A stretch of 64,000 bases of DNA from Squalus acanthias (taxonomy: Eukaryota): the NCBI GenBank assembly GCA_030390025.1, contig CM059431.1, forward strand, positions 126,668,001 to 126,732,000. The letters are read 5' to 3'. A program made the position numbers and the translations under genes. Positions 14,985 to 56,571 of this stretch are shown here, piece by piece (position 1 is the stretch's first letter; each line of letters begins with the position of its first letter). The notes below the pieces were generated by a model. That model was not told the DNA's origin and ran no database searches. It was given only the letters and a program-made list of their open reading frames with translations.

Positions 14985-17040
14985 TCTTTAATGAGATCTG
15001 ACTGCAGGAAACTGTTGGAGCTCTTCTTCCTCTATATCATCATTGTCACCTCCATCATGCTGAAGGTCCTTGTCCAGTGGTGGCTCTATGTGTCGTCCCC
15101 ACTGCAGAGCAAACTTATGCAGCATACAGCAAACCACTATCATACAGGACACTCTTCTTTGGGTGTATTGGTGGAAGTCACCAGATCTGTCCAGGTATTG
15201 GAATTGTTGCTTGAAGACTCCAATGGTTTGGTCGATGAGGGCTCTCCTCGAGCCATGGATCTGATTATTCAGCTACCGAGAATACAATCCTGAGATGAAT
15301 CATAAAGCGAGTATGGAGGGGACATCCTTTGATGCCAAGTATCCAGCCTCTCACTTTTTGAGCAGGGCAAAGATTGGAGGTTGGAGGACTGCTGCAATAT
15401 AAAAGCATCATGGCAGTTGCCAGGAAAGCTGACAAAGACCTGCATGATGCGCTGCTGGTGATTTCACGTTAATGGAATCGAAGCCCTTGCAAGTCATGAA
15501 GGCAGCTGGGTGGTGTGAAGACACTCGCAGGGTGATATGGGTATAGTCAGTGACCCACTGCGCTTCAGTCTGCGCTCACTGGCGGTCGAACTCCAAACCA
15601 TTGTCAACACCTTCACCGAAGCATACGAGAGCATGGGCCTCACACTAAACATCCGTAAGACAAAGGTCCTCTACCAACCTGCCCCCGCCACACAGTACTG
15701 CCCCCCGATTATCAAAGTCCACGACAAGGCCTTGGACAACGTGGACCACTTTCCATACCTCGGGAGCCTACTGTCAACAAGGGCAGACGTCGATGACGAA
15801 GCCCAACACTGCCTTCAGTGTGTCAGTGCAGCCTTTGGTCGCCTGAGGAAGAGAGTGTTTGAAGACCAGGACCTCAAATCTGGCACTAAGCTCATGGTCT
15901 ACAGAGCAGCAGTGATACCTGACCTGCTGGATGCCTCAGAGACATGGACCATGTACAGCAGGCACCTCAAAGCACTGGAGAGGTACCACCAACACTGCTG
16001 CCGCAAGATCCTGCAAATCCATTGGCAGGATAGGCGCACCAACGTCAGTGTTCTCGCTCAGGCCAACATCCCCAGCATCGAAGCTTTGACCACGCTCGAT
16101 CAGCTCCGATGGATGGGTCACATCGTCCGCATGCCCGATACGAGACTCCCAAAACAAGCGCTCTACTCGGAGCTCCGGCACGGCAAGAGAGCCCCAGGTG
16201 GGCAGAGGAAACGCTTCAAGGACACCCTCAAAGCCTCCTTGAAAAAGTGTAACATCCCCACCGACACCTGGGAATCCCTGGCCCAAGACCGCACAAAGTG
16301 GAGGAGAAGCATCCGGGAAGGCGCCAAACACCTCGAGTCTCTTCGCCGGGAGCAAGCGGAAGCCAAGCGCAGGCAGCGCAAGGAGCGCACGTCAACCCAA
16401 GCACCCCACCCACCCGCCCCTTCAACCACCGTCTGCCCCACCTGTGACAGAGACTGTAGGTCCCGCATTGGACTCATCAGTCACCTTCGAACTCATTTTT
16501 AACGTGGAAGCAAGTCATCCTCGGCTCCGAGGGACTGCCTAAGAAAGGGAGAAGAGTGTTTGAGGAAAGCTGAAATCTGTGCAAATCCCAGACTTGTTGC
16601 TTTCAGTTCTCCATGTGAAAAGTGATGAAAATGTTTGTTCTGGTAAACATGGCATCAGTCACCTGCTAGATGCAACCATGAACTGCAGACTAACTGATGT
16701 TGCTGGCATCCCCTGTCGCACTCTAGAAGGAGCCAAACAAACTGATGGCTGCAGTGACTTTGACTGCAAGAGGCAATACTGTGCTAATTGCAGCAGTGGG
16801 TTGCAGGTCTTGTTGCAGGAGGCAACACAACTCTGTGACAGCCTCCCGTGAGAAGCGCAGTCTCCTTATGCACTGCTCCTCAGAGAACCCTAGGTACGTT
16901 GTCCTGGGCCCAAAAACTCTGTTGAGGGGAAGGATTTCTGCAGGTGCAGCTTATTTTATTTGCTTTCCCTGTAGCTGCAGCTCTGTTTGATCCTTCCTCC
17001 TGGTGTTGCTCCTCTTCCTCCAACTCTTGCCAGAGTGGAA
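14985..17040 (-). pseudogene. Degenerate PIF/Harbinger (HARBI1-like DDE) transposase split by an RTE insertion
   Basis: Manual reverse translation: RFSREAVTELCCLLQQDL, VKVTAAI (16860-16650); KGFDSINV, HDAFILQQS, GWILGIKGCPL, IDQTIGVFKQQFQYLDRSG, VVCCMLHKFALQ (15490-15100). These align with the transposase at 56572-57066. Probable terminal inverted repeat (TIR) ends at 17498. Confidence 0.8.
15580..16545 (+). mobile_element. RTE-clade (BovB-like) LINE 3' fragment
   Basis: GLTLNIRKTKV, FPYLGS, QLRWMGHIVRM, C-terminal CPTC...HLRTH zinc finger; short 3'UTR. Confidence 0.9.
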
Positions 17041-17774: not shown

Positions 17775-18690
17775 AAAAGAAAGAATGACTGCATTTGTAT
17801 AGCGCCTTTCACGACCACTGGATGTCCCAAAGTGCTTTACAGCCAATTAAGTACTTTTTGAAGTGTCTCTCTTCTCTTAGGCAGTCCCTCGGAACCGAGG
17901 ATGACTTGCTTCCACATTAAAAATGAGTTCGAAGGTGACTGATGAGTCCAATGCGGGACCTACAGTCTCTGTCACAGGTGGGGCAGACGGTGGTTGAAGG
18001 GGCGGGTGGGTGGGGTGCTTGGGTTGACGTGCGCTCCTTGCGCTGCCTGCGCTTGGCTTCCGCTTGCTCCCGGCGAAGAGACTCGAGGTGTTTGGCGCCT
18101 TCCCGGATGCTTCTCCTCCACTTTGTGCGGTCTTGGGCCAGGGATTCCCAGGAGTCGGTGGAGATGTTACACTTTTTCAAGGAGGCTTTGAGGGTGTCCT
18201 TGAAGCGTTTCCTCTGCCCACCTGGGGCTCTCTTGCCGTGCCGGAGCTCCAAGTAGAGCGCTTGTTTTGGGAGACTCGTATCGGGCATGCAGACAATGTG
18301 ACCCGTCCATCGGAGCTGATCGAGCGTGGTCAAAGCTTCGATGCTGGGGATGTTGGCCTGAGCAAGAACACTGACGTTGGTGCTGTTGTAATGTAGGAAA
18401 CGCGGCAGCCAATCTGCACATAGCAAGCTCCCACAAACAGCAATGTGATAATGACCAGGTAAACTGTTTTTTTGTTATGTTGATTGAGGGATAATATTGA
18501 CCAGGACACGGGGATAACTTCCCCTGCTCTTCTTCAAAATAGTGCCATGGGATCTTTTACGTCCACCTGAGAGAGCAGACGGGGACTCGGTTTAATGTCT
18601 CATCCGAAAGACGGCACCTCCAACGGTGCAGCACTCCCGCAGTACTGCACTGGAGCGTCAGCTTAGATTCTTGTGCTCAAGTCTCTGGAT
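17775..18690 (-). mobile_element. Deu-domain SINE interrupted by the RTE at 17868-18382
   Basis: Deu-like core GGAGGTGCCGTCTTTCGGATGAGAC and L2-like tail on the reverse strand. Confidence 0.75.
17868..18382 (-). mobile_element. RTE LINE 3' fragment, inverted near-identical copy of ~16035-16545
   Basis: Near-identical C-terminal translation (...RIGLISHLRTHF) and 3'UTR. Confidence 0.9.
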
Positions 18691-22997: not shown

Positions 22998-24167
22998 AAC
23001 TAGTGGTGTTCCGCAGGGGTCAGTGCTGGGTCCCCAACTCTTCACAATCTATATTAACGATTTGGAGGAGGTGACCGAGTGTAACATATCAAAGTTTGCA
23101 GATGATACTAAGATGGGAGGGAAAGTAGTGAGTGAGGAGGACATAAAAAATCTGCAAGGGGACATAAACAGGCTAAGTAAGTGGGCAGAGATTTGGCAGA
23201 TGGAATACAATACTGGAAAGTGCGAGGTTATGCACTTTGGCAGGAAAAATAGTAGAGCAAGTTATTATCTAAATGGCAAGAAACTGGAAAGTACTGAAGT
23301 ACAAAGGGATCTGGGGGTCCTGGTGCACAAAACTCAAAAGGTTAGTATGCAGGTGCAGCAAGTGATTAAGAAGGCCAATGGAATGTTGGCTTTCATTGAT
23401 AAGGGGATAGAATATAAAAATAGGGAGGTATTGCTTCAGTTGTGCAAGGTATTGGTGAGACCACACCTGGAATACTGCATACAGTTTTGGTGTCCATACT
23501 TAAGAAAAGACATACTTGCTCTCGAGTCAGTACAAAGAAGGTTCACTCGGTTAATCCCGGGGATGAGGGGATGGACATACGAGGAGAGATTGGGTAGATT
23601 GGGACTCTACTCATTGGAGTTCAGAAGAATGAGAGGCGATCTTATTGAAACATATAAGATTGTGAAAGGGTTGGATCGGGTGGATGCGGGGAGGATGTTC
23701 CTGATGATGGGTGAAACTAGAACTAGGGGGCATAGTCTTAGAATAAGGGGCTGCTCTTTCAAAACTGAGATGAGAAGGAACTACTTCACTCAGAGGGTGG
23801 TAGGTCCATGGAATATTATGCCCCAAAAAGCTGTAGAAGCTACATCATTACATAAATTTAAAACAGAAATAGACAGTTTCCTAGAAGTAAAGGGAATTAA
23901 GGGTTACGGGGAGCGGGCAGGAATTTTGGACATGAGTCTAGGTTCGGATCGGTCATGGCCCTGTGGGTAGCATAGCGGGCCCAGGGGCCATGTAGCCTGA
24001 TCCTGCTCCTATTTCGTGTGTCCAATTCTGTTAGGTTCAGGAGATGGTTCTGTGATAGTAGATTGGCGGTTAGGATCAGATCAGCCATGATCTTATTGAA
24101 TGGCGGAGCAGGCTCGAGGGGCCGATTGGCCTACTCCTGCTCTTATTTCTTATGTTCTTATGTTCTT
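22998..24167 (+). mobile_element. 5'-truncated CR1 (RT C-terminal ORF 23023-23970 open)
   Basis: KFADDTK, RPHLEYCIQFW; (TTCTTATG)n tail. Confidence 0.92.
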
Positions 24168-24612
24168 ATGATGGTGTTTCCATGCACCTGTTGCCCTTGT
24201 CCTTCTAGGTGGTAGAGGTCGCGGGTTTGGGAGGTGGTGTCAAAGAAGCCTTGGCGAGTTGCTACAGTGCATCTTGTAGATGGTACACACTGCAGCCACG
24301 TTGCGTTGGGTTGGAAGGAGTGAATGTTTAAGGTGGTGGATGGGGTGCCAATCAAGCGGGCTGCTTTATCTTGGCTGGTGATGAGCTTCTTGAGTGTTGC
24401 TAGAGCTGCACTCATCCAGGCAAGTGGAGAGTATTCCATCACACTCCTTACTTGTGCCTTGTAGATGGTGGAAAGGCTTTGGGGAATCAGGAGGTGAAAC
24501 ACTCGCCACAGAATACCCAGCATCTGACCTGCTCTTGTAGCCACAGTATTTATGTGGCTGATCCAGTTAAGTTTCTTGTCAATGGTAACCCTCAGGATGT
24601 TGATGGTGGGGG

Positions 24613-25745
24613 TGCAAAGGAATAAGCCATATAACCTATTCAGAAAAATACACTATCTTATGAAAGAATTTTGGCCTTATTAAACCATGACAAACTGGGT
24701 TTGGGAATTTAGAAACCTAACTATAAAAAAGCTGTGAAAGCATTCTGGCTATTGAGATAAGGTAGTTGTTGACCCTGAATAAATAACCTTATTGAAACAG
24801 AAGGCTAAAGGCTCCGACAGACTGAACTTTTTGGAACAAAACAATGGTTCACCATGGATAAGGTGTTCTAATTTACACCTCGTAAAGAAGCACAAACATC
24901 TACCTTCGTAAAAATGACATCAAGTAAAAAACACACCTGCCGTCACACCATTTTTTATGGTAAACTTAGAACACCTAGAGAGGAGACATGATTCTGTAAT
25001 GCTACCAGCTGATCTGGCAGTAAGAATTGCAGAGGTCAGCAGAAAAATGACTAGAGATAATTAGCTTGCATCAGCAGAAAACTTTAAAGGAAATACCACT
25101 GGAAAAGGGTATAAATATTGAACTCAAATGGGATAGTAGACTCGCTTTAATCGGGCAAAGCGATTCACGGCTTCAGAGGTGGCTCTGTAAGTCTCCAACT
25201 CTTTGTACCTCAGGGATCAAAGGTATTTGATTTTGGTGGATATCCTGTAGAACACTAAGAAATGTAAAACTGTAGCAAAGTTAAGATTTGAGAGTAAGGT
25301 TCTCTGATAATAAGATTGTAAAGCTTTCTCTTTTTGGAATTGTTAATGTTGCTATTGACTCACCAACTGTAAATTACATGTCGGTTCTTTAATAAATCTA
25401 TATATTTTTAGAATTGTCTCACATAAGACTTCTTTATCAAAAACTCGCAAACTCAATCTCTGTACACTCTTTGGTGAGGAGTTGCAGAATTCTGGGAGAG
25501 TTTTCCGGACCCTCATAATATCCGGAATGTTACAGTCTAGCTAAACTTATTAAAAGTGCTATCTAGAGGACGGTAACATTTTCAGGTTGTTCCTTTCCTT
25601 TAGGGAGAGATAGTCCGGACCTTTAGACCCAATTAAGCGTCTTTAGGATTCGGCTACCTCAAACTTTAGTTGAAAGTGAACGTCTGCGAAATACGCCTAA
25701 TCCGGGGTAGCCCTAAAGGGGCTAAGACTAGTAATTATCCCTTCA
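24613..25745 (+). mobile_element. Solo LTR of a foamy-like endogenous retrovirus (1133 bp), related to but distinct from the provirus LTRs
   Basis: TG...GTAATTATCCCTTCA end identical to the provirus LTR end; GGGG TSD (24609-24612, 25746-25749); TATAAA 25110, GTAAGT 25187, AATAAA 25391. Confidence 0.92.
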
Positions 25746-27168
25746 GGGGATTCGGTCATGGTAATGCCTTTGAATGTCAAGGGGCAGTGGTTAGACTCTC
25801 TCCTGTTGGAGACAGTCATTGACTGGCACTTGTGTGGCGCAAATGATACCTGCCACTTATCAGCCCAAGCCTGAATATCGTCCAGATCTTGCTGCATGCG
25901 GGCATGGGCTGCTTCATTGTCTGAGGAGTTGCAAATGGAAGTTAACACTGTGCAATCATCAGCGATCATCCCCACTTCTGATCCTATGATGGAGGGAAGG
26001 TCATTGATGAAGCAGCTGAAGATGGTTGGGCCTAGAACACTGCCTTGAGGAACTTCTGCAGCGATGTCCTGGGGCTGAGATGACTGGCTTCCAACAACCA
26101 CAACCATCTTCCTTTGTGCTAGGTATGACTCCAGCCAGTGGAGAGTTTTCCCCGTTATTCTCATTGACTTCAATTTTACTAGGGCTCTTTGATGTCACAT
26201 TCGGTCAAATGCTGCCTTGATGTCAAGGGCAGTCACTCTCACCTCACCTCTGGAATTCAGCTCTTTCGTCCATGTTTGGACCAAGGCTGTAATGAGGTCT
26301 GGAGCCAAGTGGTCCTGGCGGAACACAAACAGAGCATCAGTGAGCAGGTTATTGGTGAGTAAGTGCTGCTTGATAGCACTGTCAACAAAACCTTCCATCA
26401 CTTTGTTGATGATTGAGAATAGACTGATGGGGCGGTAATTGGTCGGTTTGGATCTGTCCTGCTTTTTGTGGACAGGACACACCTGGGTAGTTTTCCACAT
26501 TGTCGGGTAGATGCCAGTGTTGTATCTGTACTGGAACATCTGGCTAGAGGCATGGCGCATTCTGGAGCACAAGTCTTCAGTGCAACAGCCGGGATGTTGT
26601 TGGGGCCCATAGCCTTTTCGTATCCAGTATCCTCAGCCGTTTCTTGATATCACGTGGAGTGAATCGAATTGGCTGAAGACTGGCTTCTGTGATGGTGGGG
26701 ACCTCAGGAGGAGGTCGATATGGATCATCCACTCAGCACTTCTGGCTAAAGGTGTTTGCAAACACTTCAGCCTTGTCTTTTGCACTCGTGCTGGGCTTCA
26801 CCATCATTGAGGATGGGGATGTTCATGGAGCCTCCTCCTCCTGTTAGTTGTTTAATTGTCCACCACCATTCATGACTGGATGTGGCAGAATGGCAGAGCT
26901 TTGACCTGATCCGTTGCCTGTGGGATCGCTTGGCTCTTTCTACAGCATGTATATCGTCCTGTGTTGCAGCTTCACCAGGTTGGCACTTCATTTCTCAGTA
27001 TGCTTGGTGCTGCTCCTGGCATGCTCTTCTACACTCCTCATTGAAGCAGGGTTAGTCCCCTGGCTTGATGGTAATGGTAGAGTCGAGGGATATGCCGACC
27101 ATGAGGTTACACATTGTGGTGGAATACAATTCTGCTGATTCTCATATGCCATTGCAGTCAATCACCAT

Positions 27169-27984
27169 GGGCGCGATCTTGCCAGCCCTGGGGAGGCAGG
27201 TATGGAGGTGGGACTGCCGGGAAAATGGCAGAATTTGGGGTTGGGTGCCCAACCCGCCATCTTGCCAGGAGGCGGGTAGCTGTCCCGCGCCGGGTCCCAT
27301 CTCCTTGGAGGCGGGAAGGGATTACAGCCACTTAACTGCATGTTAACAGGTAGTTAGCAGGCAGAAAATAGGCTTATCACCATTTTGCCCACACAAATGC
27401 GGGCTTCCCGAAGGCTCCGAACCCCGCCAGGGTCACCGAGACGAGTAGTGGGTCTGCGGGGGTCAGAGGGGTCCAAAAGTTTGCTGTGGAGGTAAGTGAT
27501 GGGTGCAAGTGTGGAGAGGTGAGTTTTTGAGGTAAGTGGAATGTGTTAGAAAAAGTGTACTTACCTTTGGTTCTTCCTGCAGGCTTCAGTCGGTGGGTAT
27601 GCGAAGAGTCTCGCACCTCCGCGGTAGAGATGACAGATGGCCGTTGCATTCACCAATGCAACAACCATCTCATTTCTGCAAAAGAAAGAGGTTTGATGAC
27701 AAGACCTCATCAAACTACAGAGAATGTCAGTGTTTGACAGCTTCACAGAGCTGTCAAACGATGACAATTCATCTGTCAAAAATTTTTGACAGATGAAACG
27801 TCATACGTTGACATTCTCTGCAACCGACTTTCCCTTAATTGGCCTGCTAAGCCCGCTGCGCGTGCTTAACAAGGTCAATTAAGGGAAAATAGCGTGGGTT
27901 GGCCAGAAGTTGATGGAGGCGGGACTAAAACCCGACAAGTGGGAGTCCCGCCTCTAAAAGCTCCCCATTGGCAAAATCACCCCC
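27169..27984. mobile_element. Harbinger-like MITE (inverted relative of 3451-4277)
   Basis: TIRs GGGCGCGATCTTGCC / GGCAAAATCACCCCC. Confidence 0.7.
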
Positions 27985-29037
27985 TAGGTGTCAATGAGAG
28001 GAATGAAACTCTATTATGTCACCAGCATCCTCTAGTGTGCCCGTCTCTCCATCACCCACTTCCAGGTCCTCGCCACCTCCAACAATTTTGTGTGCAGCCT
28101 CCTCAGCACTTGTCAACGTTGTTAAGATTGGTGTACCTCCTCCAGTCAGTGTTCTCTCCCTCTTATTGTGGGCTATCTTTTCCTGCAAGGAGGGACACAA
28201 GCGGAGTTTCAATCACAGTGATGGAGTGAGCGTGACAAATCCCTACCATAGAACCTTTGAGGGAGATGAAGAAGGGGTGAGGTGCCAAGAGGAAGCTAGC
28301 TCCCTGTGCGTTGTTAGTTGTTGTCACTGCATAACAGTGAGAGTGAGTCTAAGGGGTGCATAGGCAGGATGCTGAAGTGATTCAGCACAGAGACAGGGAT
28401 GGATAGGTAAGGGTGCAAGGGAAGTAAGGGTAAGGTGGTATGTGGAGGAGCAGGCTTACAATGCAATGTGCTGGTGATGAGAAGAGAAGGAAGCAGATTG
28501 AAGGTAAGTGTGATGTGATACTCACTTTTGATGTTCGCACAAGTTCATTAAACCATTTTCGGCACTGGATCCAGGAGCGTGAACAAATGGACCTTGTGCT
28601 GACCTCCTCAGCAATGCGCAGCCAGGCTGCCATGGTCTGCTGAGGAGGCTTCCTCCGGCCATCCAGAAGGAAGAAAATCTCCCTGCGCCCTCTTACAGCT
28701 TCAACAAGAGCTTGGAGGGACTCATCATTAAATCGAGCAGCTGCCTTGCCTCTGGAAGAAGTAATTGTGGATGGAGCAATCTCACTGAGTATCAGAATCC
28801 ACAAGAGAAAAGCTTAGGCTGAATGGGAGCTTTAAAACCAGCTGCTATGATGACGTCATCAGAGTTGGCCAGCCGACCTGATCGCACTCATTGGACCGGC
28901 CAGCGCGCCCCAATGAAATCAACAAGCTGATTAAATCAAAATCGGACATCAGCAGCTGATCCCGCCGGAAGCGGCTCCAGAACCCGCCCACCACGCAACC
29001 CGACTCCAAACCGCCTCGGCAATTAAAATCGAGCCCC
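27985..29037 (-). mobile_element. Harbinger-derived element fragment with a spliced Myb/SANT-like DNA-binding gene
   Basis: Exon ~28770-28526 RFNDESLQALV...AAWLRIAEEV...RSWIQCRKWFNEL, donor GTGAGT; acceptor TTGCAG, then exon 28182-~28024 EKIAHNKRERTLTGGG; TIR GGGGCTCGATTTT at 29037. Confidence 0.8.
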
Positions 29038-30744
29038 AAGTCTCCGGATCATTAGTCCAGGCCTCTGGATTACTAGTTCAGTAACATAACCACTATGCCA
29101 CCTTTCCCGAGTGCTTGGCATGGATGTACATGTGGAAAAGGCAACATTTTGCGCGAACAATTTTTGGGTCATCCATGAGATACAGGTGTCTTTGCCAGAA
29201 TCCTTTAACTGTGCCATCTTCGTCTCCAACTGGTCTCTGGTCCTGCAGGTCGTGTGCCCAGCATTGGGCCTGTTTACCACTTGCAGCCAGGAATGGTGCC
29301 TTGGTGTTTTCTGGAGTGTGTACCCGAAAGCGCCAAATTGGGCAGCTCTCTTCACACCCATCTCATGGAGCTACATCTCCATCAAGCCATTCCCGAAACA
29401 ACGGAGCAGCTGTTGCACCATTCATTCATGCCCACAAAATCCGTGTTTGGCCTCCACATTGGTTTTCTTTTCACTTCATTTCTTTCATTCCCAGTCTTCG
29501 CCAAGGCTCAATATCTGAAATTGGTTTTGAAGCTCGATAAAACTGAAATAAATATTTATCCCCATATACGGGCACTTATCTTTAAGTGCATCCCCTTAAT
29601 TTGGACTTGACAGCCAGAACATCCCATTGGGCTGGTTCCCTGCACAGTGGCAAAGTGCATTGACAACTATGTATAATTATTCAGGGCAGTCAGTGCACTG
29701 CTGCATTAAGACAGCTTGTGCCAGAAAACCCTCAATTTTGCAGGTAGTAGAATTTCAAGCACTAATATGGTTTACTATGGATCTGTTTGCATTGCCATTG
29801 TATTTTACTTATATATTATTTATGTATCCGTGGCATTTATTTTTATCGAAAAGATTTTATGATACATAAAGATGTTTTCCAATGTCTGTGGTGAGCTATA
29901 ACTCGTTGGCATTCATGTTACTTATGTGTTCATTTTTGTATTTCTACCTGTGTAATTATGAAATTATGCTATGCAGAGATGTAAGCAGCTGGGACTCATA
30001 AAATGCAGTGATGCAGAAATTTCACTGTTCTATAAAAAGCATAATTGTCATAGTAACAATGTCAATTATCTGCATACATCGTAACTCACACCTACAAAAT
30101 TATGCCAGAGTAAGCACTATAACAGTGTCAAGAAAGCAAGTTATGGTTAACAGTAGTTACCATCACTTGCTGAACCAGTGTTATTGCAACATTTATTAGT
30201 CTATAGAAATCTATGACTTGCCTAATGATATCTAATACAATTTCTACAGTCTCCCTGTGCTCTTAGCAACCACTAAGGTCAAATTCATGGCACATCTGTC
30301 CTTTCAATAGTTGTCTGCAACATAATTCTGTTGTCATAGATCTAATTTACAGGGGAAAAAAACAGTTTGCAATTTTTTTTAGGCCTAAACAGGTCACAAA
30401 GCACTGGTGTGAAGCACAGCAGTTTCAATGTGAGGGGCCAGAATGTCTAATTGTGGTCATGTTGTATTAAAAAATGACAAGTTGCACAGGCTACAGTAGG
30501 AAGGAAACTTGTTGAGACTGGATGCCTGAAAGTCCATTGCCTCCAGCTAGTTACAGAGACAATGATACATCTGCAGTGGATGACATGACTAAGTCGCTGG
30601 GTAAAGAGGAACATAGGGACAGGCATAGACCATTCAGCCCATCGAGCCTGCTTCAAAATTCAATTAGATCACAACTGATCTGTACATTAACTCCATTTAC
30701 CCACATTTGCGCCATACCCTTACCTAACATAAATCTATCGATCT

Positions 30745-32990
30745 CAACAACAACAACAAAAATAACTTGGATTTATATAGCGCCTTTAACTTAGTAAAAC
30801 ATCCCAAGGCGCTTCACAGGAGTATAATAAGACAAAAAAATTGACACTGAGCCACATAAGGAGAAATGAGGGCAGGTGACCAAAAGCTTGGCCAAAGAGA
30901 TAGGTTTTAAGGAGCGTCTTAAAGGAGGAAAGAGAGGTAGCGAGGCAGAGAGGTTTAGGGAGGGAATTCCAGAGCACAGGGCCTAGGCAACAGAAGGCAC
31001 GGCCACAATGGTTGAGCATTTATAATCAGGGATGCTCAAGAGGGCAGAATTAGAGGAGCGCAGATATCTCGGGGGGTTGTAGGGCTGGAGGAGATTACAG
31101 AGATAGGAAGGGGCGACGCCATGGAGGGATTTGAAAAAAAGGATGAGAATTTTGAAATTGAGGCTTTGCTTAACTGGGAGCCAATGTAACTCAGCGAGCA
31201 CAGGGGTGATGGGTGAACGGAACTTGGTGCGAGTTAGGACACGGGCAGCCAAGTTTTGGATGACCTCAAGTTTACGTAGGGTAGAATGTGGGAGGCCAGC
31301 CAGGAGTGCGTTGGAATAGTCAAGTCTAGAGGTAACAAAGGCATGGATGAGGGTTTCAGCAGCAGATGAGCTGAGGCAAGGGCGGAGACGGGCAATGTTA
31401 CGGAGGTGGAAATAGGCGGTCTTAGTTATGCTGCGGATATATGGTCGGAAACTCATTTCAGGGTCAAATATGACATCAAGGTTGTGAACAGTGCGGTTCA
31501 GCCTCAGACAGATGTTAGAGAGAGCAACGGAGTCAGTGGCTAGGGAACAGAGTTTGTGGCGGGGACCAAAAACAATGGCTTCGGGCGTCCCAATATTTAA
31601 CTGGAGAAAATTTCTGTTCATCCAGAACTGTGTGTCTGACAAGCAGTCTGACAAGTTAGAGACTGTGGAGGGGTAGAGAGACATGGTAGTGAGGTAGAGC
31701 TGGGTGTCGTCAGCGTACACGTGGAAACTGACGCTGTGTTTTTGGTTGATGTCACCAAGGGGCAGCATGTAGATGAGAAACAGGAGTGGGCCAAGGATAG
31801 ATCCTTGGGGGACACCAGAGGTAACGATGTGGGAGCCGGAAGAGAAGCCATTGCAGGTAATTCTCTGGCTACAATTAGATAGATAAGAATGGAACCAGGC
31901 GAGTGCAGTCCCACCAGCTAGATGACGGTGGAGAGGCGTTGGAGAACAATGGAGTGGTCAACCGTGTCACAGGCTGCAGACAAGTCAAGAAGGACGAAGA
32001 GGGATAGTTTACCTTTGTCACAGTCACAAAGGATGTCATTGTGACTTTGATGAGAGCTGTTTCGGTACTGTGGCAGGAGCAGAAGCCTGATTGGAGGGAT
32101 TCAAACATGGAGTTGCGCGAAAGATGAGCACAGATTTGGGAGTCGACAACATGTTCAAGGACTTTGGAGAGGAAAGGGAGGTTGGAGATGGGGTGGTAGT
32201 TTGCAAGGATGGAGGGGTCAAGGGTTTTTTTGGAGGTGAGGGGTGATGAAGGTAGATTTGAGGGAGAGGGGGTCAGTACCTGAGGAGAGAGAAACGTTAA
32301 CAAGTTCATCTCACATGGGAGATCTGTGTGGAGTTTGCACATTCTCCCCGTGTCTGCGTGGGTTTCCTCCGGGTGCTCCGGTTTCCTCCCACAGTCCAAA
32401 GATGTGCGGGTTAGGTTGATTTGGCTATGATAAATTGACCCTTAGTGTTAGGGGGGGATTAAATACGTGGGGTTACAGGGATAGGGTGGGATATGTGTCG
32501 GTGCAGGCTCGATGGGCCGAAATGGCCTCTATCTGCACTGTGGGGATTCTGTGATTCTGTGTGATTCTGGGAGCCAGAAAAGTAAGTTGGGTGGTCAGCA
32601 GTTTGGTGGGAATAGGGTCGAGGGAGCAGGAAGTGGGTCTCATGGACAAGATGAGTACAGAGAGGTCATGAGGGGAGGTCGGAGAGAAACTGGAGAAAGA
32701 TGTGAGTTCAGGGCTAGGGCAGGCAGGCACCTTATAGGAAGCTTGGCCTGGTGGGCTAGGGCAAGGAATGGAAGTGGCAGAGGCAGCTGAACGGATGGTC
32801 TCAATCTTAGAGACAAAAAAGTCCATGAGCTCCTCACACTTGTTGTCGGATGTGAGGGTGGAGGAGACAGGGGAGTAGGGTTTAAGGAGACGGTTAACAG
32901 TAGAGAATAAATGCTGGGGTTTATCTTTGCATTTCAAAATGATTCTGGAATAGTGAGCAATTTTGGCCGACGAGAGCAGGACCTGATAAT
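30745..32990 (-). mobile_element. L2 LINE (RT 3' half), decayed
   Basis: YADDTQLY, LIHAFVTSRLDYSN, LHWLPV, CSLDPIPT; GGCGCTATATAAAT and (TTG)n tail. Confidence 0.9.
32320..32567 (+). mobile_element. HE1-like V-SINE (5'-truncated) inserted in the L2
   Basis: V-domain TGTGTGGAGTTTGCACATTCTCCCCGTGTCTGCGTGGGTTTCCTCCGGGTGCTCCGGTTTCCTCCCACAGTCCAAAGATGTG; CR1-type tail. Confidence 0.85.
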
Positions 32991-32999
32991 TATATCAGT

Positions 33000-33462
33000 C
33001 TTGAAAGCTTCAATTGATCGAGCATCCACAGCCTTTTGGGGGTAAGAGTTCCAGATTTCCACTGCCCTCTATGTGAAGAAGTGATTCCTGATTTCACTCC
33101 TGAATACCCTAGATCTAATTTTAAGATTCCCCCACCAGAGGAAATAGTTTCTCTTTATCTACCCTAGTGAAACCTTTTATCATTTTAAACACCATAATTA
33201 GATCCCCCCTCAATCTTCTGTACTCAAGGGAATACAAGCTAAGTTTATGCAACCTGTCCTCATAATTTAACCCTTTAAGCCCTGGTATCATTCTGGTGCA
33301 TTTGCGCTACACCCTCTCCAAGGCCAATATACCCTTCCTGAGATGTGGTGTCCAGAACAAAGCAGTACTCGAGATGGGGTCTGTCCAAGGCTCTATAGAG
33401 CAGAAGCATAATTGCCTCTCATTTGTATTCCATCCCCCTTGGGATAAAGGCTAACATTCCAT
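33000..33462 (-). mobile_element. Old CR1 3' fragment
   Basis: Degenerate RT C-terminal homology (RPHLEY region). Confidence 0.7.
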
Positions 33463-33496
33463 TGAAAAGAGAGCTAATATTTTTAATGGGGCGGTC

Positions 33497-34120
33497 CCTA
33501 GGTGAACCGCGTGCACGCTAGATGCTGCGCGCACGCAGCACACTTAGATTTTTTTTCAGGTTTCTACGCGAGGGTAAGTATTAAAGATTCTACGCTAATA
33601 AAAAGGAGGTGTAAGACCCCTTTTGAACAAGGTAAGTGGTTAATTAAGTATAATTAAAAAAATTTTCAACAGGTTTATCTTTTTTAGATACTTTAAAGAA
33701 AGGTAAGTTTATTTTTATAACTTTTAAAAAGTATTTTAATTTTTTCTAAAATTTAAATTTTTGTTTAAAGTGGTTAATTTATTTAACTATAGTTATTTTA
33801 TAAATGTGATGTTTTTTTTTAATTTATTTTAAGTTTGGCTGTTCTTTTGGGGCCGATTTCAATTCACAGATTTGACAGATCTCCTGTCAAATCTATGAAT
33901 GAAAGATGGTCTGCTGCCATTGGCTCTCCATGGCCCACGTGATCCCAGGGGTCGCATCGCACTAACTGCGCCCTGGAACACGCAAGCACTGCGCGCCAGC
34001 TCTTGGGAGAGGCCCAGGACCCGAAGTTCCTGTGGGCCCAAAACACAACGGCAGGCGCGGTGGGTAAGAGCGCGCGCGATCCTTACCCCCGCGGCAAGCC
34101 GGCCACGCGAATTTCTAGGC
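33497..34120 (-). mobile_element. Harbinger-type MITE, truncated inverted copy of 34333-35096
   Basis: Reverse-complement similarity to 34340-34960; terminus AATTTCTAGGCC. Confidence 0.8.
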
Positions 34121-34332
34121 CATCGTATCTTTCAGCCTTTCCACAGATCGTTTGGGTAACAAACATACCTGTTAAAACCCACTGGCTGACACAATAAATG
34201 TAGAGGCAGGAAACCAAGTCTGTGGCCAAGAGATGGAGAAGTGAAATAATCAAACACCCACATGGAGATGAAATCGGATGATTAAATTAGTAACAAGATA
34301 ACTGCATTTAAAATTAAATTAAAAGATATATT

Positions 34333-35096
34333 GGCCCAGAAATTAGGCTCCCTGGCTTCCCGCGGGTGCAATGATCACACGCGCACCTACCTACTGCGCC
34401 TGCCGTTGACCTCTAGGCCCACGGGGACTTCAGCTCCTGGGCCTCCTGCAGCAGCCGGCGCGCAGTGCTTGTGTATCCCAGGGGTGTAGTTAGTGCGATG
34501 TGTCCCCTGGGATCATGTGGGCCATGGAGAGCCAATGGCAGCAGACCATCTTTCATTCATAGATTTGACAGACCTGTCAAATCTATGAATTGAAATCGGC
34601 CCCAAAACAACACCTAAACTTCAAATATTTTTTTTTTAAAAACCATCACATTTTTAAAATAACTATAAGTTAAATAAATTAACTACTTTAAACAAAAATT
34701 TTAATTTTTGTCAAAATTAAAATACTTTTTAACAGTGCTAAAAATAAACTTACCTTTCTTTAAAGTATCTAAAAAAGATAAACCTGTTGAAAAAGTTTTT
34801 AAATTGTAATTAATTAACCACTTACCTTGTAAAAAAACGGGTCTTGCACCTCCTTTTTAAAAGCGCAGCTTCTTCCATACTTACCTTCCCGGAGAAACCT
34901 GAAAAAAACCCTAAGTTCGCTGCATGCGCGCAGCCTCTCCCACGCACGCGGTTCATCTCTGAACCACTCCCTTCACGAAACCGGAAGTTCCGTTTTCCCG
35001 CGCATGCACAGTACATGCAGGAAACCGGCACTTCAGGAGGCCTTACGGGTGAGTACACAGCGCGTACTCACCCAGCAAGTGCCTAATTTCTGGCCC
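34333..35096 (+). mobile_element. Harbinger-type MITE inserted in CR1
   Basis: TIRs GGCCCAGAAATTAGGC / GCCTAATTTCTGGCCC; flanks ATT/AAT; subterminal sequence shared with the end of the element at 54578-57816. Confidence 0.85.
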
Positions 35097-35445
35097 AATA
35101 AATAAACTAATGAAACTTAAAGAGGATAAAACCCCTGGTCCGGATGGATTATATCCGTGCATTTTAAAAGAATCTAGGGAAGAGATTGTAGAGGCATTAC
35201 TACACATATTTAGAAATTTGTTAGAAAAAGGTGTAGTGCCATGTGGACTGGCGGACAGCTAACATAATATCTATATTTAAGAAGGGCGATAGAACATGTC
35301 CAGGGAACTATAGATCAGTCAGCTTAACATCGGTGGTAGGAAAAATAATGGAATCCCTACTAAAGGAGAAAATAGAAGAACATCTAAAAAGCAAAAATAT
35401 AATAATGAATAGTCAGCATGGATTTCAAAAGGGAAAGCTTTGTTT

Positions 35446-36930
35446 TGTAATAAGATAAACCATATTCCAAGAAATACATCATCCTATGCACAGATTTTGA
35501 TAATATTAATACATGACATACTGGGTTTAAAAGTCTGGAAAGCCTCGGCGACACAGGCTGCAAACACAATACATGCTTCTGAGATAAGATGGATTGTTAA
35601 CACAAAGCTGTGAAAACAAGCTTTGAAATGGGAATTGGTTTGTAAATACAGAGACAAAGCCCCTTTTGAAGCAAACCATTGGTGCTTCCAGAATGTCTAG
35701 AGTTTGGAACAAAACAATAGCAATGCCCAAGTAAAGTGTCAAAATCTAACACATCGAACAGGTGCACAGAACATTAAAAAAAACAAGTGCCTTTGAAATA
35801 ATGACATCAAGTAAAAGAAATACCTGCCGTAAAATAGTTTTATGTTAAACTTAGAAACAGGAAACACAATTAAATATGCAACCAATTGAAATAGCTAAGA
35901 AATACAAAAAACACCCTGGTTGAAGTGTTTTTGATTTACAAGTTGTAAAAGGTACAAATAGGAAGACTTTGAAAATATAATATCAATAGATGACAAGAAG
36001 CAATTACATTGTGTTTGTATTGAACTTGGAACACCATGGAGTCATGACGTCTGGCTTACAAGCAGTTAAGTGATATTAAGAATTCAATAGAAAGACTTCC
36101 TAAGAATAGCATCAAATAGATAAATCGACAATAATCATAAAAATGATAAGTTTTCGAAACACCGAAAGGTAGAGACAGAATTCTAAAAGTTGACAACTGA
36201 AATGACAGTAAGAATAGAAAAGAATTCAATAAAGAATCACTAGAGATAATTAGATTACATCAGCAGGAAACATCAAAGAAAATACCACTAAAAAAAGGTA
36301 TAAAAATAGAGCTTTTCAGATAGAGAGTCAGAAGTCACTGGAAGGGCAAGCGTTTCTCAACTTCACAGGCATACTCTGTAAGTTTTCAACTCTGAGTCTC
36401 GGAAAATCAAGGTATTTGATTTTGGTGGATATTCTGGATTAAGAAATAAGTAGAAGTGTGGAAATGTAACAAATTTAAGATTTGACAATAAGGATCTCTG
36501 ATAAGAAATGTAAACTATTTGTATTTTGAACGGTTAAAGTCGCGATTGACTTATCAGCTGTGAACTGAATGTCGGCTCTTAAATAAATCTATATATTTTT
36601 AGAATTGTATCAAGTTGTATTTCTGTATCAACCTCGCAAACTCAATTTCTGTAAACTCTTCAGAGAGGAGTTGCAGAATTCTGGAGGGTTTTCCAGACCC
36701 TCATAATATCCGGAAGGTTACAGTCTAGTTAAACTTATTAAAAGTGCTATCCGGAGGACGGTAACATCTTCAGGCCGTTTCTTTCCTTTAGGGAGAGATA
36801 GTCTGAACTTTAGACCCAATTAAACGTCTTTAGGATTCGGCTACCGCTAACTTTAGTTGAAAGTGAATGTCTGGGCTTACGCCTGATCTGGGGTAGTCCG
36901 AAAGGGCTAGGACTTGTAATTATCCCTTCA
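35446..36930 (+). repeat. 5' LTR (1485 bp)
   Basis: TGTAA...CCTTCA; direct repeat of 41938-43423; TATAAAA 36299-36305, splice donor GTAAGT 36378, AATAAA 36582-36587. Confidence 0.97.
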
Positions 36931-36932
36931 GT

Positions 36933-36950
36933 TGGTGCCCAACGTGTGTG
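36933..36950 (+). promoter_or_regulatory. Primer-binding site, tRNA-Lys1,2-like
   Basis: TGGTGCCCAACGTGTGTG versus canonical TGGCGCCCAACGTGGGGC; begins 2 nt after the LTR end. Confidence 0.9.
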
Positions 36951-37193
36951 TTGACGAGTTGATACAGAACCTATACTTATATTTATATCTATATATATCC
37001 TGTAGATTGTTAAGTATAGAAGGAGTGTTTGACTGACAGTGGTACTAAGACCCAGATTTTAGTTTCTAGAGATGACAAGTCCCTGATCAGGCCTTGTAGA
37101 ACTTAAATCGGAACTCCCTCAACATACCATTAAGGTCTAGAAGCTTCTTATAAAGTTCATATTAAACCCTAACTGAGGTTAGGTCCTGACGAA

Positions 37194-37718
37194 ATGGCAA
37201 ACCCTGTCGGAATTGACCAAGTCTTTTTATTAGGAAATTCAAATGATTGTTTTATTAGGGGAAATAATCCTATCCCTGTACCTCCACAAAACCAAGTGAT
37301 AATTTTTGTAATAGAAGGCTTTGAAGCCGAAGAAGCTGTTAGAACTCAAGGCATGATTAATGTTGATCCCCAGAACCAGGGGATACAGAATATCCAGTGA
37401 GATAATCCAAAAAATACTCCAAATCCACTAAATTCCTTAATGATAAGGTGCACACCTGCACAATTGGGAGGCCTAATGAAAGGTGCTCAACAAGGTGATG
37501 ACAACCATGGGCGAATAGCAGGACCCGGAGCAGCCTATGCTCCTGGGGGCCATGGATTCCGGTTAACGTGGCAAGCTCATGATGAAATAAATGACCAGAA
37601 TCTTCGAGAAAACTATGGACAGCTTAGAATCCATATAATAAACGGTCTGACAAACCCCCTAAGGGATCTGGAAAACATAATACCCTCAAGAGGGAGGAAC
37701 AAAAATCAGTTAAAATAA
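37194..37718 (+). pseudogene. gag: gag N-terminal domain remnant (foamy-type); internal TGA, C-terminal part missing
   Basis: ORFs 37194-37400 and 37440-37718 share one frame; first gene after the PBS; distant resemblance by eye to the prototype foamy virus (PFV) Gag N-terminus (NPIPVPPQNQVIIFVIEG, NPLNSLMI, LRIHIING). Confidence 0.65.
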
Positions 37719-37719
37719 T

Positions 37720-40700
37720 TAAAGACAATGCAGCAAATGAAGCTCAGGATCCTGAGGATGAGCAATCCCAGGATTGGAGGCCTGGCACCCAGCCAGGGCC
37801 TCTTGAATTCCCCTTTGCATTGACAAACTTGTCCACAAATACACAAGTGAAGGCCCTGTTTGATACGGGGGCTGATTACACTGTAATAGATCCTGCAATT
37901 ATAAAAACTAAGTGGACAGGTTTGGGAAGTCCAATTTGTAAAAAACCATTAGGGGGATTCACACAAGACGAAAGCAAAATAATAATTTTTTACAAAATAA
38001 CTATTACTATATATGGAATAACGGTGACCCTAGATGTAGGACTGGTACCACAATTGTCCTGTACCCTCATTATAGGACAACCAGACATGCAACATTACCT
38101 TAAAATTTCAACCAAACCTGTAGAAGCATCCACAGACCAGGATGACAGGGAAAATCATGTTCGAACACAGCTTGATCGAACTTGCCTAGAGGGGGGAGGT
38201 AAAGACCTCCTCGAGAAACTAATAAATAAATACTACCCGTATCTACAACGCCATCCAAATCAATGTGGAAAGATAGACATCAAACCCCACCCCCTTGATG
38301 CTGGCTGGCACAAGCCTAAAAAACAGTGACCTATTCAAGACCACAAAGGAAAAATAGATCTCCTAACAACGCTCAAAGAACTAACAGAACAAGGTGCCTT
38401 AATCAAAATGGCATCTAGAACTAATTCACCATTGTTTGGTGTTGCTAAACCAGATGGGAGGTGGAGATTAGTGGTCGATTATACAGCCTTAAATAAGGTA
38501 ACAGCCCCACATACTGCACAACAGCAAAATTCCACAGCCCTTCTCTCTGGAGTCACGAGGGAAAAATATAAATCTTGTATTGATCTAGCAAACGGCTTCT
38601 GGTCACATCCAATCGAAAAAGCTGATTGGCCAAAAACAGCGATGACCGGACCCGATGGTCATCAGCACTGCTGGACCAGATTGCCCCAGGGATTTCAAAA
38701 CAGCCCCGTTCTCTTTTCAGCCCACATCATTGACCTTTTAAAAGACCTACCTAACGTCAATTCTTATGTGGACGATATATATCTGTCACATGACAATCTC
38801 CAAGAGCACTTGAAAGCCATTGATAGTGTTTTATCCAGACTTACAACTGCTGGGTACTTAATCAACATAAAAAAGAGTCAACTAGTTCAGGAAGAGGTAG
38901 ATTTTCTGGGCCTGCGAATAACTGGAAACAGTAGAGGATTAACTCAATCCTATAAAGAAAAATTAGCCACCATTCAATATCCTAAAACTCTGAAAAATCT
39001 GCAAGCCAGTTTAGGACTTCTGAATTTTGCTCGATCCTTCACGCCAACCTTTGCCGAGCTCTCAGCCCCCCTGTATGCTAGAGTGGGCGATGCAGCAAAA
39101 GGACCATTCATATTTTCACCAGACGATTACTCAAAATTGCAACAATTATGCCGAGAGGTACAAAAAGCCATAGACCTGGAACAGAGAGACCTACAAGTTC
39201 CCCTCAATATTCATCTCAGGTCATCACCTAAAGTAGCAGTTGCAGTTTTTTACAATGAAAAGAGCATAGTGCCCATTCAGTTCCATTCTTATAACTTTTC
39301 CAATGTCGAAAGGAGGTACATTAAAAAAGAAAGGGTCATGACTATGGTAATCCAATGCCTCATCAAGGCACGAACCCTTCCAGGGAAATACCGCATTACC
39401 ATTTATACTGAGATTCCCGATTTAAGATCAGTATTGAGGATGGCTTCTGATGAAAAAAGAGCCACCCAGATCTGATATGATAAATGGGCATCATTCTTGA
39501 ATGATCCTGCACTCATTTTTAAATTCCTCTCCCCGGAAATGGACTTAGAGCATCTCCCCATAATGGAGGATGATGATACTGAGGAGGGAATCAGACAAAT
39601 ACCTATGAGACCGCTTACAGAATACGATCAAGTTATTTACTGTGATGGATCGTCAATGACGATTAAGAAAGAGACATCCCAACAATCGTCAGCTGGGATG
39701 GGGATAGTAGTAGGGACTTTTCAAGATTCCTATTCTTTTTATCCAGAAGAATTACTGTCTATACCCCTTGGCCATAAGACAGCACAATATGCTGAAGCCG
39801 CAGCATTACAATATGCTTTAGAAAAGCTAGACCCTATTAAACCCATACTAATCTGCACGGATTAGTAAACGATTACTACTGTAAAAGAGGATATAACCAA
39901 GATCTAGTTTTCTGGGAACAAACAAATTTTACCAATCATAAGGGTAAACCCATAAAACATAAGTCATTGTGGGAAGATATTCTCCGTTCCAGAATGGAGA
40001 AAAATAATTGTCAGGTGTTTCATGTAAACGGGCATACCACTGGGACAGTACACTCAAAAGGAAACAGCCTTGCAGACGAACAAGCGAAACATTCGGTCTG
40101 CATGACACCCCCTCGAGAGGGGCCTGCCAATGTTAGTGTAATCACTAGGGCAGAATGGGCAGCTAATCAGGATGACAAACTGATTCAGCTATTAGACCCA
40201 ACACAAGAGAATCCACCAGGATATCCACCAAAGTACTCTTACTCGGAAACCCCTATGGGTATTGTACTAGTTAAGTTGCCCAAGGGAAATCGAGAAGTAA
40301 CCCGAGCCACAAACGAGAACAGCTTGTAAAAGAACCTCACGAGGGCATAAGTTAAGCACATTGTGGTGCCAGAAGAACATTCTGCAAATTGACCCCCTTA
40401 TATTGGTGGCCAGGCATGCTTAAAGCCTGTAAAACATACGTGGCAAATTGTGAGCCATGCTATTTGACCAATAAGTCATCACTAATTAAGCCACCACCAT
40501 TGGCTCCTGTGAAAGCTGAAGAGCCAATGGGAAAATTCGTTTGTGTGGATGGATGCACTTCCTTTTGCTGGTTGATCCCCACAAAAACTGTTTCGGAAAA
40601 CGCACTTGCCAGGGCTATTTCTGATATAATTACTGTAGCTGGTGCACCCAAAATCTTACACTCCGATCAAGGTGGAGCCTTTGTATCCAAGGTCTTCAAA

Positions 40701-41300
40701 GACTACTGCGAACAAAGGGGGATTGGCTTAGAGCACAGCACGCCACGTCATCTGCAATCAGCGGGGCTGGTGGAACGTAAAAACCAGGAAGTAAAAAAGC
40801 TATTGGTCAAACTGTTGAGAATCAGGGGGAATAAGTGGACCACCATCATTCTGGAGGTGTAGCTATCACTCAATAATGTGCCCACATCTGCATCAGGGAC
40901 AGTGTCCCCTAAAACTCCATATTATCTAATGTATGGGGTTGAGATGCATACACCGCTTACCCATAGTTCTTTTATTGCCTCTACAGACTCTGAGTCCTTG
41001 ACCCGACAGCGACAGTTAGATTTTAAAAAAGAAGTAACAGAGGAGATTCATCGAATTGATCAGAGGATAAGGGAGGCGAATAGGCAGAAAAAATTGACAA
41101 ATAAAGCATGGCAACCCATAGTAGGAGAATGGGTACAGGAAAAGAAGTTCAAGCAGAAACCTGGTTTAAGACCGCAGTGGAAAAAACCTGTTCAAATACA
41201 TTCTGTTATTAATGAAAGAATAGTTCAAATACATGTTAACCAGCCGAATGGCAAGCATATTCTTAAAACTGTCTCCATAGACAATATCAAGAGATGTCCT
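37720..41300 (+). pseudogene. pol: pol (protease, RT, RNase H, integrase) of foamy type, with stops, two frameshifts and an in-frame deletion
   Basis: PR LFDTGA; RT KPDGRWRLVVDY, DLANGFWSHPI, WTRLPQGFQNSP, YVDDIYLSHD; RH YCDGS, AQYAE, GNSLAD; IN GYPPKYSY, YWWPGM...CEPC, HSDQG, VERKN, LRPQWKKP, TVSIDNIK. Confidence 0.95.
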
Positions 41301-41927
41301 GCAGGATACCGAAAAGGAGGAATACAAGGTGCAGTTGTACACTGTCTTTTAAGACCCAGCTTGGAGCACGACACAGGAAATGGATGCGATCGAATTACTG
41401 ACGATGGAAAGTCAGAAGGTGTCGTCGGCTCTTCTACACGTTGCTTGGCAACGCATCAGGAATTGGATTTGCGAAAAGCAACAGCCGAAACAAGGAAAGA
41501 TCAACGAGTTACTTTAACGAAGGAGGAAGACATCGCGGATAAAGAAGGAATCAACTGAGTGCCCCGCAAGGCCTTTACGAATACAAGCATCTGTACACAC
41601 ACCGGATCGAAAGAACAGCGTGTCGAGCTTCAACTAGTTTCAAATGACGTCTCCTTGACTCGTATGAAGAACTCACCTCTACGGAACGTACATCTGCCGA
41701 TTGGACATTCTAAGTACATGTTGTTTCGCTCATTACATGACTATGTACTTATCATCCTTTTAAATTGTGTACAATTTAAAATAAGGCAAAACATTGTCCC
41801 AGGATGATTTAAAAGGAATTTTCATGTCGCACATGATTGTGCATATAGTGAACTTAATATGCTATTGTAACCTTATGAGTACCATTGACCAAACTCTGCC
41901 CTGATTTTATAAGCTCATCTTTTGGTC

Positions 41928-41937
41928 AAGAGCGGGG
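41928..41937 (+). promoter_or_regulatory. 3' polypurine tract
   Basis: AAGAGCGGGG directly abutting the TG of the 3' LTR. Confidence 0.8.
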
Positions 41938-43423
41938 TGTAATGGAATAAACCATATTCTAAGAAATACATCATCCTATGAACAGATTTTGATAATATTA
42001 ATACATGATATACTGGGTTTAAAAGTCTGGAAAGCCTCGGTGACACAGGCTGCAAACACAATACAGGCTTCTGAGATAAGATGGTTTGTTAACACAAAGC
42101 TGTGAAAACAAGCTTTGAAATGGGAATTGGTTTGTAAATACAGAGACAAAGCCCCTTTTGAAGCAAACCATTGGTTCTTCCAGAATGTCTAGAGTTTGGA
42201 ACAAAACAATAGCAATGCCCAAGTAAAGTGTCAAAATCTAACACGTCGAACAGGTGCACAGAACATTAAAAAAAACATGTGCCTTTGAAATAATGACATC
42301 AAGTAAAAGAAATACCTGCCATAAAATAGTTTTATGTTAAACTTAGAAACAGGAAACACAATTAAATATGCAACCAATTGAAATAGCTAAGAAATGCAAA
42401 AAACACCCTGGTTGAAGTGTTTTTGATTTACAAGTTGTAAAAGGTACAAATAGGAAGGCTTTGAAAATATAATATCAATAGATGACACCAAGCAATTACA
42501 TTGTGTTTGTATTGAACGTGGAACACCACGGAGTCAAGACGTCTGGCTTACAAGCAGTTAAGTGATATTAAGAATTCAATAGAAAGACTTCCTAAGAATA
42601 GCATCAAATAGATAAATCGACAATAATCATAAAAATGATAAGTTTTTGAAACACCTAAAGGTAGAGACAGAATTCTAAAAGTTGGCAGCTGAAATGACAG
42701 TAAGAATAGAAAATAATTCAATAAAGAATCACTAGAGATAATTAGCTTACATCAGCAAGAAACTTCAAAGAAAATACCACTAAAAAAAGGTATAAAAATA
42801 GAGCTTTTCAGATAGAGAGTCAGAAGTCGCTGGAAGGGCAAGCGTTTCTCAACTTCACAGGCACGCTCTGTAAGTTTTCAACTCTGAGTCTCGGGTAATC
42901 AAGGTATTTGATTTCGGTTGATATTCTGGATTAAGCAATAAGTAGAAGTGTGGAAATGTAATGAAATTAAGATTTGAGAATAAGGATCTCTGATAAGAAA
43001 TGTAAGCTATTTGTATTTTGAACGGTTAAAGTCGCAATTGACTTATCAGCTGTTAACTGAATGTCGGCTCTTAAATAAATCTATATATTTTTAGAATTGT
43101 CTCATGTAGTATTTCTTTATCAACCTTGCAAACTCAATTTCTGTACACACTTCAGAGAGGAGTTGCAGAATTCTGGGGGGTTTTCCGGACCCTCATAATA
43201 TCCAGAAGGTTACAGTCTAGTTAAACTTATTAGAAGTGCTATCCGGAGGACGGTAACATCTTCAGGCTGTTTCTTTCCTTTAGGGAGAGGTAGTCTGAAC
43301 TTTAGTCCCAATTAAGCATCTCTAGGATTTGGCTACCGCTAACTTTAGTTGAAGATGAACATCTGGGGAATACGCCTGATCTGGGGTAGTCCAAAAGGGC
43401 TAGGACTTGTAATTATCCCTTCA
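41938..43423 (+). repeat. 3' LTR (1486 bp)
   Basis: TGTAA...CCTTCA followed by GTTT; TATAAAA 42791-42797; AATAAA 43074-43079. Confidence 0.97.
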
Positions 43424-56555: not shown

Positions 56556-56571
56556 GAGGTACAAGGCGACA

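Follow-up and report, generated by a model that had tools for sequence, protein, structure and literature searches.

How a solo long terminal repeat (LTR) of foamy type came to lie 9.7 kb upstream of the start of a foamy-like provirus, from whose LTRs it differs strongly, is the question raised by positions 24613-25745 of the window, the 64,000-nucleotide stretch of DNA analysed here. A sequence-only reading had assigned this LTR to a second foamy-like lineage and had proposed that at least two foamy-like subfamilies invaded the germline, with either a high copy number or a local integration preference.

A solo LTR in a LINE and its foamy-like neighbour

The element at 24613-25745 is a genuine retroviral solo LTR, the remnant of an old foamy-virus-like retrovirus (Table 1). 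It stands without an attached primer-binding site, polypurine tract or internal gene, and the same LINE lies on both flanks. Its only matches in the window are the two LTRs of the neighbouring provirus (BLASTN against the window: 79% identity over 791 bp, E-value 1e-179, plus short upstream pieces). The distance from the TATA box to the GT of the splice donor is 77 nt in the solo LTR and 79 nt in both provirus LTRs, as had been proposed, and the TATA box precedes the poly(A) signal by 281 nt in the former and 283 nt in the latter. The likeness claimed for the poly(A) context extends to the full identity of the block around the signal. The claim of a common terminal 15-mer held for one end: the 3' 15-mers of the three LTRs are identical, whereas the 5' 15-mer of the solo LTR, compared by eye, agrees with those of the provirus LTRs at no more than 12 and 9 of 15 positions. 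An exact search for the 27-bp poly(A) block returned no matches in viral contigs and none in metagenome contigs, and an Rfam search of 24500-37100 returned no matches. A further donor-like site, also conserved in all three LTRs, is found in R at 25220-25232, about 35 nt past the first.

The insertion interrupted the reverse transcriptase (RT) frame of the LINE, which remains open over about 330 codons around it. Five G precede the solo LTR and four follow it, and insert-free copies of the LINE carry five. In contigs of the public runs X1, X3 and X6 (2, 3 and 4 contigs, respectively), the empty-site joint passes from 24608 to 25746 and skips 1137 bases, which are the 1133 bases of the LTR plus 4. 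Hence, the target-site duplication (TSD) is 4 bp long, and insert-free copies of the LINE bear out the GGGG duplication that had been proposed. In three public runs, 158, 122 and 135 contigs exit the stretch at 24612 into downstream LINE sequence. Within the 64-kb window, no second copy of this LINE stretch was found that could provide an empty site. The GGGG-TG at the left edge of the solo LTR merely mimics a foamy polypurine border.

Table 1. Coordinates of the solo LTR, its target site and the neighbouring provirus in the window.
Feature	Position	Strand	Remarks
Left TSD copy (GGGG)	24609..24612	+	Empty-site joint skips 1137 bases
Solo LTR, short-U3 type	24613..25745	+	1133 bp; TG...CA; homology to both provirus LTRs; LINE sequence flanking both sides
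U3 of solo LTR	24613..25137	+	End placed from the TATA box; K2P 0.43 vs provirus LTRs in distal part
U3 junction of solo LTR	24969..24970	+	Provirus LTRs hold 303 extra bases here, 6-bp direct repeat at borders
TATA box of solo LTR, predicted	25110..25116	+	Motif and place shared with both provirus LTRs
Splice-donor-like site in R of solo LTR, predicted	25185..25192	+	Precedes the poly(A) signal, as in foamy viruses; shared with both provirus LTRs
Poly(A) signal block of solo LTR	25391..25417	+	27 bp, identical across all three LTRs
U5 of solo LTR	25419..25745	+	Start inferred; K2P 0.13-0.15 vs provirus LTRs; identical 3' 15-mer
Right TSD copy (GGGG)	25746..25749	+	Pairs with left GGGG copy
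Host LINE RT frame, portion upstream of insertion	25746..26194	-	RVT_1 E 4.6e-14; frame open to insertion
Host LINE RT frame, portion downstream of insertion	24158..24612	-	Open frame; no Pfam match; contigs show continuity with other flank
Provirus 5' LTR, long-U3 type	35446..36930	+	1485 bp; 303-bp segment at about 35854-36156
Provirus primer-binding site	36933..36950	+	Presumed tRNA-Lys resemblance
Short broken frame, gag position	37194..37718	+	Identity inferred from position; no Pfam or significant PDB match
Broken pro-pol, several frames	37628..41558	+	Spumavirus A9 protease, RT, RNase H, integrase with SH3 domain (Pfam)
Provirus polypurine tract, GGGTG border to 3' LTR	41928..41937	+	Motif as in the available text of PMC5210030
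Provirus 3' LTR	41938..43423	+	1486 bp; inside a LINE; provirus TSD = 4-bp GTTT

The neighbouring provirus (35446-43423) is a foamy-like endogenous retrovirus (ERV). Pfam detects in it the spumavirus A9 protease (PF03539, E-value 2.3e-8) and the integrase SH3 domain (PF18103, E-value 1.1e-9), and the best matches of its RT are the Pol proteins of simian and equine foamy viruses (41-44% identity). In an RT tree of 24 rows, 23 of them picked from 81 database matches, it falls within a foamy/foamy-like clade of 11 rows (support 100/99) and outside the mammalian foamy clade. Its inside measures 5.0 kb, with a broken frame of about 0.5 kb at the gag position and about 0.6 kb between the integrase and the 3' LTR; so little sequence at the gag and env positions indicates that the provirus is internally deleted. 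None of the five short and broken pieces at these positions has a relevant Pfam match, and the search of PDB gave no meaningful match, the best row being a foamy Env at chance level (E-value 0.83). The LINE targeted by the provirus has an uninterrupted sibling copy at 7825-7875.

Some other features of the provirus and the window deserve mention. The deleted provirus (36931-41937) retains its primer site, which may be of the tRNA-Lys type, together with most of pol and the polypurine tract, and may be a form spread in trans. Its two LTRs differ unevenly (28 of 881 sites in U3, 16 of 284 in R and 24 of 320 in U5, p 0.004); CpG-type changes account for part only of this pattern, and a conversion or recombinant origin of these LTRs would skew LTR dating. 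A frame at 41905-42282, running from before the 3' LTR into U3, is interrupted by only two stops over its first 115 codons in U3 (shuffle p 0.015) and is perhaps the tail of an accessory gene; it has no Pfam match, no selection signal and no codon-position signal against the solo LTR. Just upstream of the provirus, nested inverted repeats (79-93%) at 33485-34973 form a palindrome of about 1.5 kb. The window also holds a G-rich tandem array with units of about 12 bp at 56172-56593 and a 509-bp inverted repeat, whose arms (16036-16544 and 17875-18383) are 98% complementary and separated by 1330 bp; this may be an inverted duplication or a young element that ends in long terminal inverted repeats.

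Divergence between the short and long LTR types

The sequence-only reading was right that the solo LTR differs from the provirus LTRs far more than these differ from each other: K2P is 0.26-0.32, depending on the aligner, against 0.047 between the two provirus LTRs (68 of 1485 sites). With the U3/R/U5 borders placed by inference, K2P reaches 0.43 in the distal and 0.22-0.29 in the proximal part of U3; the values for R and U5 are 0.27-0.28 and 0.13-0.15. Of the proposal that U3 is much more divergent while R and U5 are shared, the parts on distal U3 and U5 therefore stand, whereas R turned out to be as divergent as proximal U3. The solo LTR differs at 251 of the 1054 columns where both provirus LTRs agree, which by region amounts to 162 of 498 in U3, 60 of 259 in R and 29 of 297 in U5 (chi-square p 3e-12). 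The best single change point is at 25377, just before the poly(A) block, with 31% of differing columns to its left and 9% to its right; none of 500 permutations produced one as strong. The U5s of the two provirus LTRs are themselves separated by a K2P of 0.08.

Neutral decay would be even along the LTR and would wreck the frame of the host LINE, hence most of the distance between the solo and provirus LTRs predates the insertion. This distance is too large for decay after insertion. The provirus shows about 2.4% change per LTR, and the solo LTR carries roughly 3-4% private changes, the latter being a rough estimate. The differences in distal U3 were rejected as evidence of selection on a coding overlap: the three codon positions share them about equally (35/38/41), and none of the six frames stands out, all having dN/dS values below 1 (0.44-0.81).

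The solo LTR is 352-353 bp shorter than the provirus LTRs, in agreement with the figure of about 350 bp given before, and most of this lies in a single gap. Of the missing bases, 303 correspond to one gap at 24969/24970, and the others to gaps of about 50, 13 and 7. In both provirus LTRs, a 6-bp direct repeat, identified by eye, borders the 303-bp segment, a pattern that a template switch by the reverse transcriptase would leave. Most likely, about 300 bp of U3 were lost by such a switch between the direct repeats, the direction of the change being our inference, and the available text of PMC12669682 describes such deletions at direct repeats in the U3 of foamy viruses. The insertion of the segment into the long type, instead of its deletion from the short one, would also fit, and the direct repeat is compatible with it. 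For the segment as an inserted repeat, the window offers no support: beyond the second LTR it holds no further copy, and the G+C content of the segment is 0.30, compared with 0.33 in the remaining U3.

Relatives in public sequencing runs and the origin of the short type

Some of the 31-mers of the solo LTR are present in 20 of the 24 listed public runs, and half or more of them in 11, which bear 4 organism labels and stem from 4 studies; one run may come from the source of the window itself. No RNA run is on record as containing the LTR. Contigs or reads from 4 of the 24 runs were aligned to the solo LTR stretch with an identity cut-off of 80%, which favours solo-like U3; the contigs are short (the longest listed piece spans about 250 bp of the stretch), and the runs may be of species related to that of the window. 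Three runs provided 25,632, 19,704 and 29,412 aligned contigs, covering all 30 bins. In the raw-read run X22, only 10 of 10.1 million reads aligned and the LINE flanks were barely covered. Another letter reaches at least 15% of the depth at 107, 100 and 128 of 1271 places in the three runs, and such a small number of variable places shows that the solo LTR has close kin.

Three of the 24 listed pieces (record 11 of X3, records 18 and 19 of X6) bridge the U3 junction without the insert and extend 35 letters or more beyond it in both directions. They carry 13, 35 and 16 other letters relative to the solo LTR, and since they differ from it, the short U3 must have been copied. In run X6, 144 contigs leave the 5' end and 251 the 3' end of the LTR into flanks that disagree with one another (agreement of 0.41 and 0.33), which implies hundreds of insertion sites. 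The short LTR is thus a replicated type, which split from the provirus LTR before either was inserted, and the high copy number that had been suggested is supported.

Of 145 variable places listed in all, of which 40 were displayed, we examined 38 within the LTR. At 15 of these, another letter is nearly fixed, so that the letter of the solo LTR is private; the other 23 are mixed. In 11 mixed sites, the alternative letter is found in neither provirus LTR, which fits the existence of more subfamilies and also a partial continuum. Besides markers of the provirus type (a 7-bp gap at 24630 in 6, 8 and 8 contigs, a loose end at 25315), the same runs contain others that belong to neither type (a 2-letter insert at 25122 in 21, 26 and 32 contigs, a loose end at 25378). 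The count of at least two foamy-like subfamilies was correct and is probably an underestimate. The median contig depth of U5 is 5-7.5 times that of distal U3, which suggests that many LTRs have this U5 without this U3. Summed depth is not copy number, and the bounds that it gives for solo-like U3 (about 150-260 to 4,500-8,100) and for U5 (about 800-1,700 to 24,000-54,000) are to be read as "many" only. None of the 18 loose ends shown, out of 1,923, leads into a primer-site flank, and the contigs revealed no internal sequence next to a short LTR.

We consider it likely that the solo LTR represents a many-copy sister subfamily within one large foamy-like ERV family, which diversified while it replicated, and that its proximity to the provirus reflects copy number. 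A single large family would have colonised the germline, probably that of a cartilaginous fish as a resemblance of its SINE suggests, and split into several LTR subfamilies during its replication. The ancestor of the short type would have lost the 300 bp or so of U3. The short type then gave rise to many insertions, one of which entered the RT gene of the LINE via a 4-bp staggered cut. Recombination between the LTRs of this provirus would later have removed its interior, the standard route to solo LTRs. U3 and most of R drifted far between subfamilies, and the poly(A) block and U5 stayed close. Constraint on the signals and exchange at the 27-bp poly(A) block are about equally good candidates to explain the closeness of U5.

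The independent invasion of the germline by two distinct exogenous viruses of foamy-like type, which would each have had a pol lineage of their own, might account for the difference of 23-33% in U3 and R and for the similar apparent age of the provirus and the solo LTR. It also has precedents, since the available text of PMC5512871 lists six species of fish and amphibians whose genomes carry two foamy-like lineages (newt, fathead minnow, cod, Midas cichlid, Amazon molly and coelacanth), and the available part of PMC5210030 also reports two in fathead minnow. Yet, U5 and the poly(A) block are only 9% apart, much of which can be explained by decay considering the distance between the provirus U5s, and third LTR variants are present. 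Two such viruses are therefore an unlikely source of this pair, and the explanation grades into that of sister subfamilies. In the earlier proposal of a second, separate viral invasion, the part that survives is that the short LTR is a distinct replicated type; a separate lineage is not borne out by a U5 that differs by about 9% and by the variants of neither type. If the LTRs formed a continuum, with the solo LTR as an older and more decayed member carrying a private deletion, one would understand that 23 of the 38 examined sites are mixed among relatives and that contig identities, measured on short contigs, range from 80 to 100% with no visible gap. This is hard to reconcile with an uneven divergence that has a sharp step (0 of 500 permutations), with a junction that recurs in 3 listed contigs of two runs, all differing from the solo LTR, and with a host LINE frame whose opening over some 330 codons does not fit 25-30% of neutral decay. 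We find it improbable.

The proximity of the two elements could be given a cause of its own: a preference of the integrase for the region or for LINE RT sequence, or local re-insertion. Both insertions are in LINE sequence, and in a family as small as about 2,000 copies, a given provirus would have a chance of about 1% of a neighbour within 10 kb. However, this chance rises to 4-28% at 10,000-50,000 copies (assuming a genome of 3-5 Gb), LINE pieces occupy much of the window, and the window was chosen after the fact. Besides, the target sites (GGGG and GTTT) and the positions in the LINE differ, and local hopping would yield near-identical LTRs. Targeting is thus the least probable of these explanations, and the local integration preference raised by the sequence-only reading is unsupported, as one pair of neighbours is unremarkable in a family this large.

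The sister-subfamily explanation can be taken further, in a version that we find possible and hold tentatively. A foamy-type virus with a mammalian-style LTR layout would have reached thousands of copies in a shark germline via the amplification in trans of internally deleted elements. Recombination at the conserved poly(A) block would have combined several promoter modules, made of U3 and most of R, with one and the same poly(A)-U5 end. If true, this would constitute a large natural record of the evolution of foamy LTRs and of their exchangeable parts, in a group of viruses said, in the available text of PMC10581153, to endogenise with difficulty.

Known foamy-like elements and the place of this family

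Genomes with several foamy-like lineages, the existence of LTR subfamilies and the deletion of U3 sequence at direct repeats have all been published already. The window family may be one of the endogenous foamy viruses already described in sharks. One such virus of cartilaginous fish was reportedly presented by Wang et al. in 2023 (J Virol 97:e01816-22). Our literature search found no description of LTR subfamilies of shark foamy ERVs, a subject that repeat libraries and the 2023 shark paper may treat. In the available text of PMC5512871, shark FLERVs form two weakly supported clades, and that of PMC10699275 includes a shark spuma ERV, ERV-Spuma.0-Sca of catshark. A predicted protein of Scyliorhinus torazame (P0014) is 41% identical to the window RT and groups with it in the tree without strong support. 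In this protein, the foamy-like RT is joined to PR/SET-type domains, either by a fusion of gene models or in reality.

The FLERVs of fish, amphibians and elephant shark, as far as the available texts of PMC5512871 and PMC5210030 describe them, share with the window family a foamy-type pol, the 4-bp TSD and GGGTG polypurine border given as foamy features in the latter, LTRs of about 1.5 kb and solo LTRs. In these texts, lineages are defined by RT or Pol, whereas the difference reported here concerns the LTR only, with a U5 that is nearly shared. The RT of the window is 41-44% identical to mammalian foamy Pol, compared with 26-37% in the available table of teleost FLERVs, which used a different measure and stretch. 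The foamy layout, with the splice donor in R and 5' of the poly(A) signal (available text of PMC3694450), is found here as in prototype and simian foamy viruses (PFV/SFV), which also have U3 deletions at direct repeats (available text of PMC12669682), the A9 protease and the integrase SH3 domain. The window family differs from them in that its RT lies outside the mammalian foamy clade and in that its R is longer (about 280 nt from the TATA box to the poly(A) signal, against an R of 193 nt in PFV). Unlike in exogenous foamy viruses, the short U3 has here spread through a germline. The LTR7 of HERV-H offers a parallel, since in the available text of PMC8912925 one ERV family split into LTR subfamilies through point changes, duplications and the recombination of these subfamilies with each other. 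HERV-H is of another retroviral class and host, and the function of its subfamily LTRs was tested, whereas the window LTRs are known from their sequence alone. ERV-Spuma-Cbo of the oriental stork is also an endogenous foamy virus with solo LTRs of varied length (560-818 bp), but the available text of PMC6955096 counts thirteen elements, compared with the hundreds or more of the window family.

Taken alone, the solo LTR means little, because solo LTRs and subfamilies are the usual residue of any large ERV family. The new data point is that foamy-like ERVs are abundant in a probable shark, with several LTR types common to related species. Such LTR types could be used to date insertions and to ask which parts, such as the donor spacing, the poly(A) block and U5, persist across foamy-type viruses.
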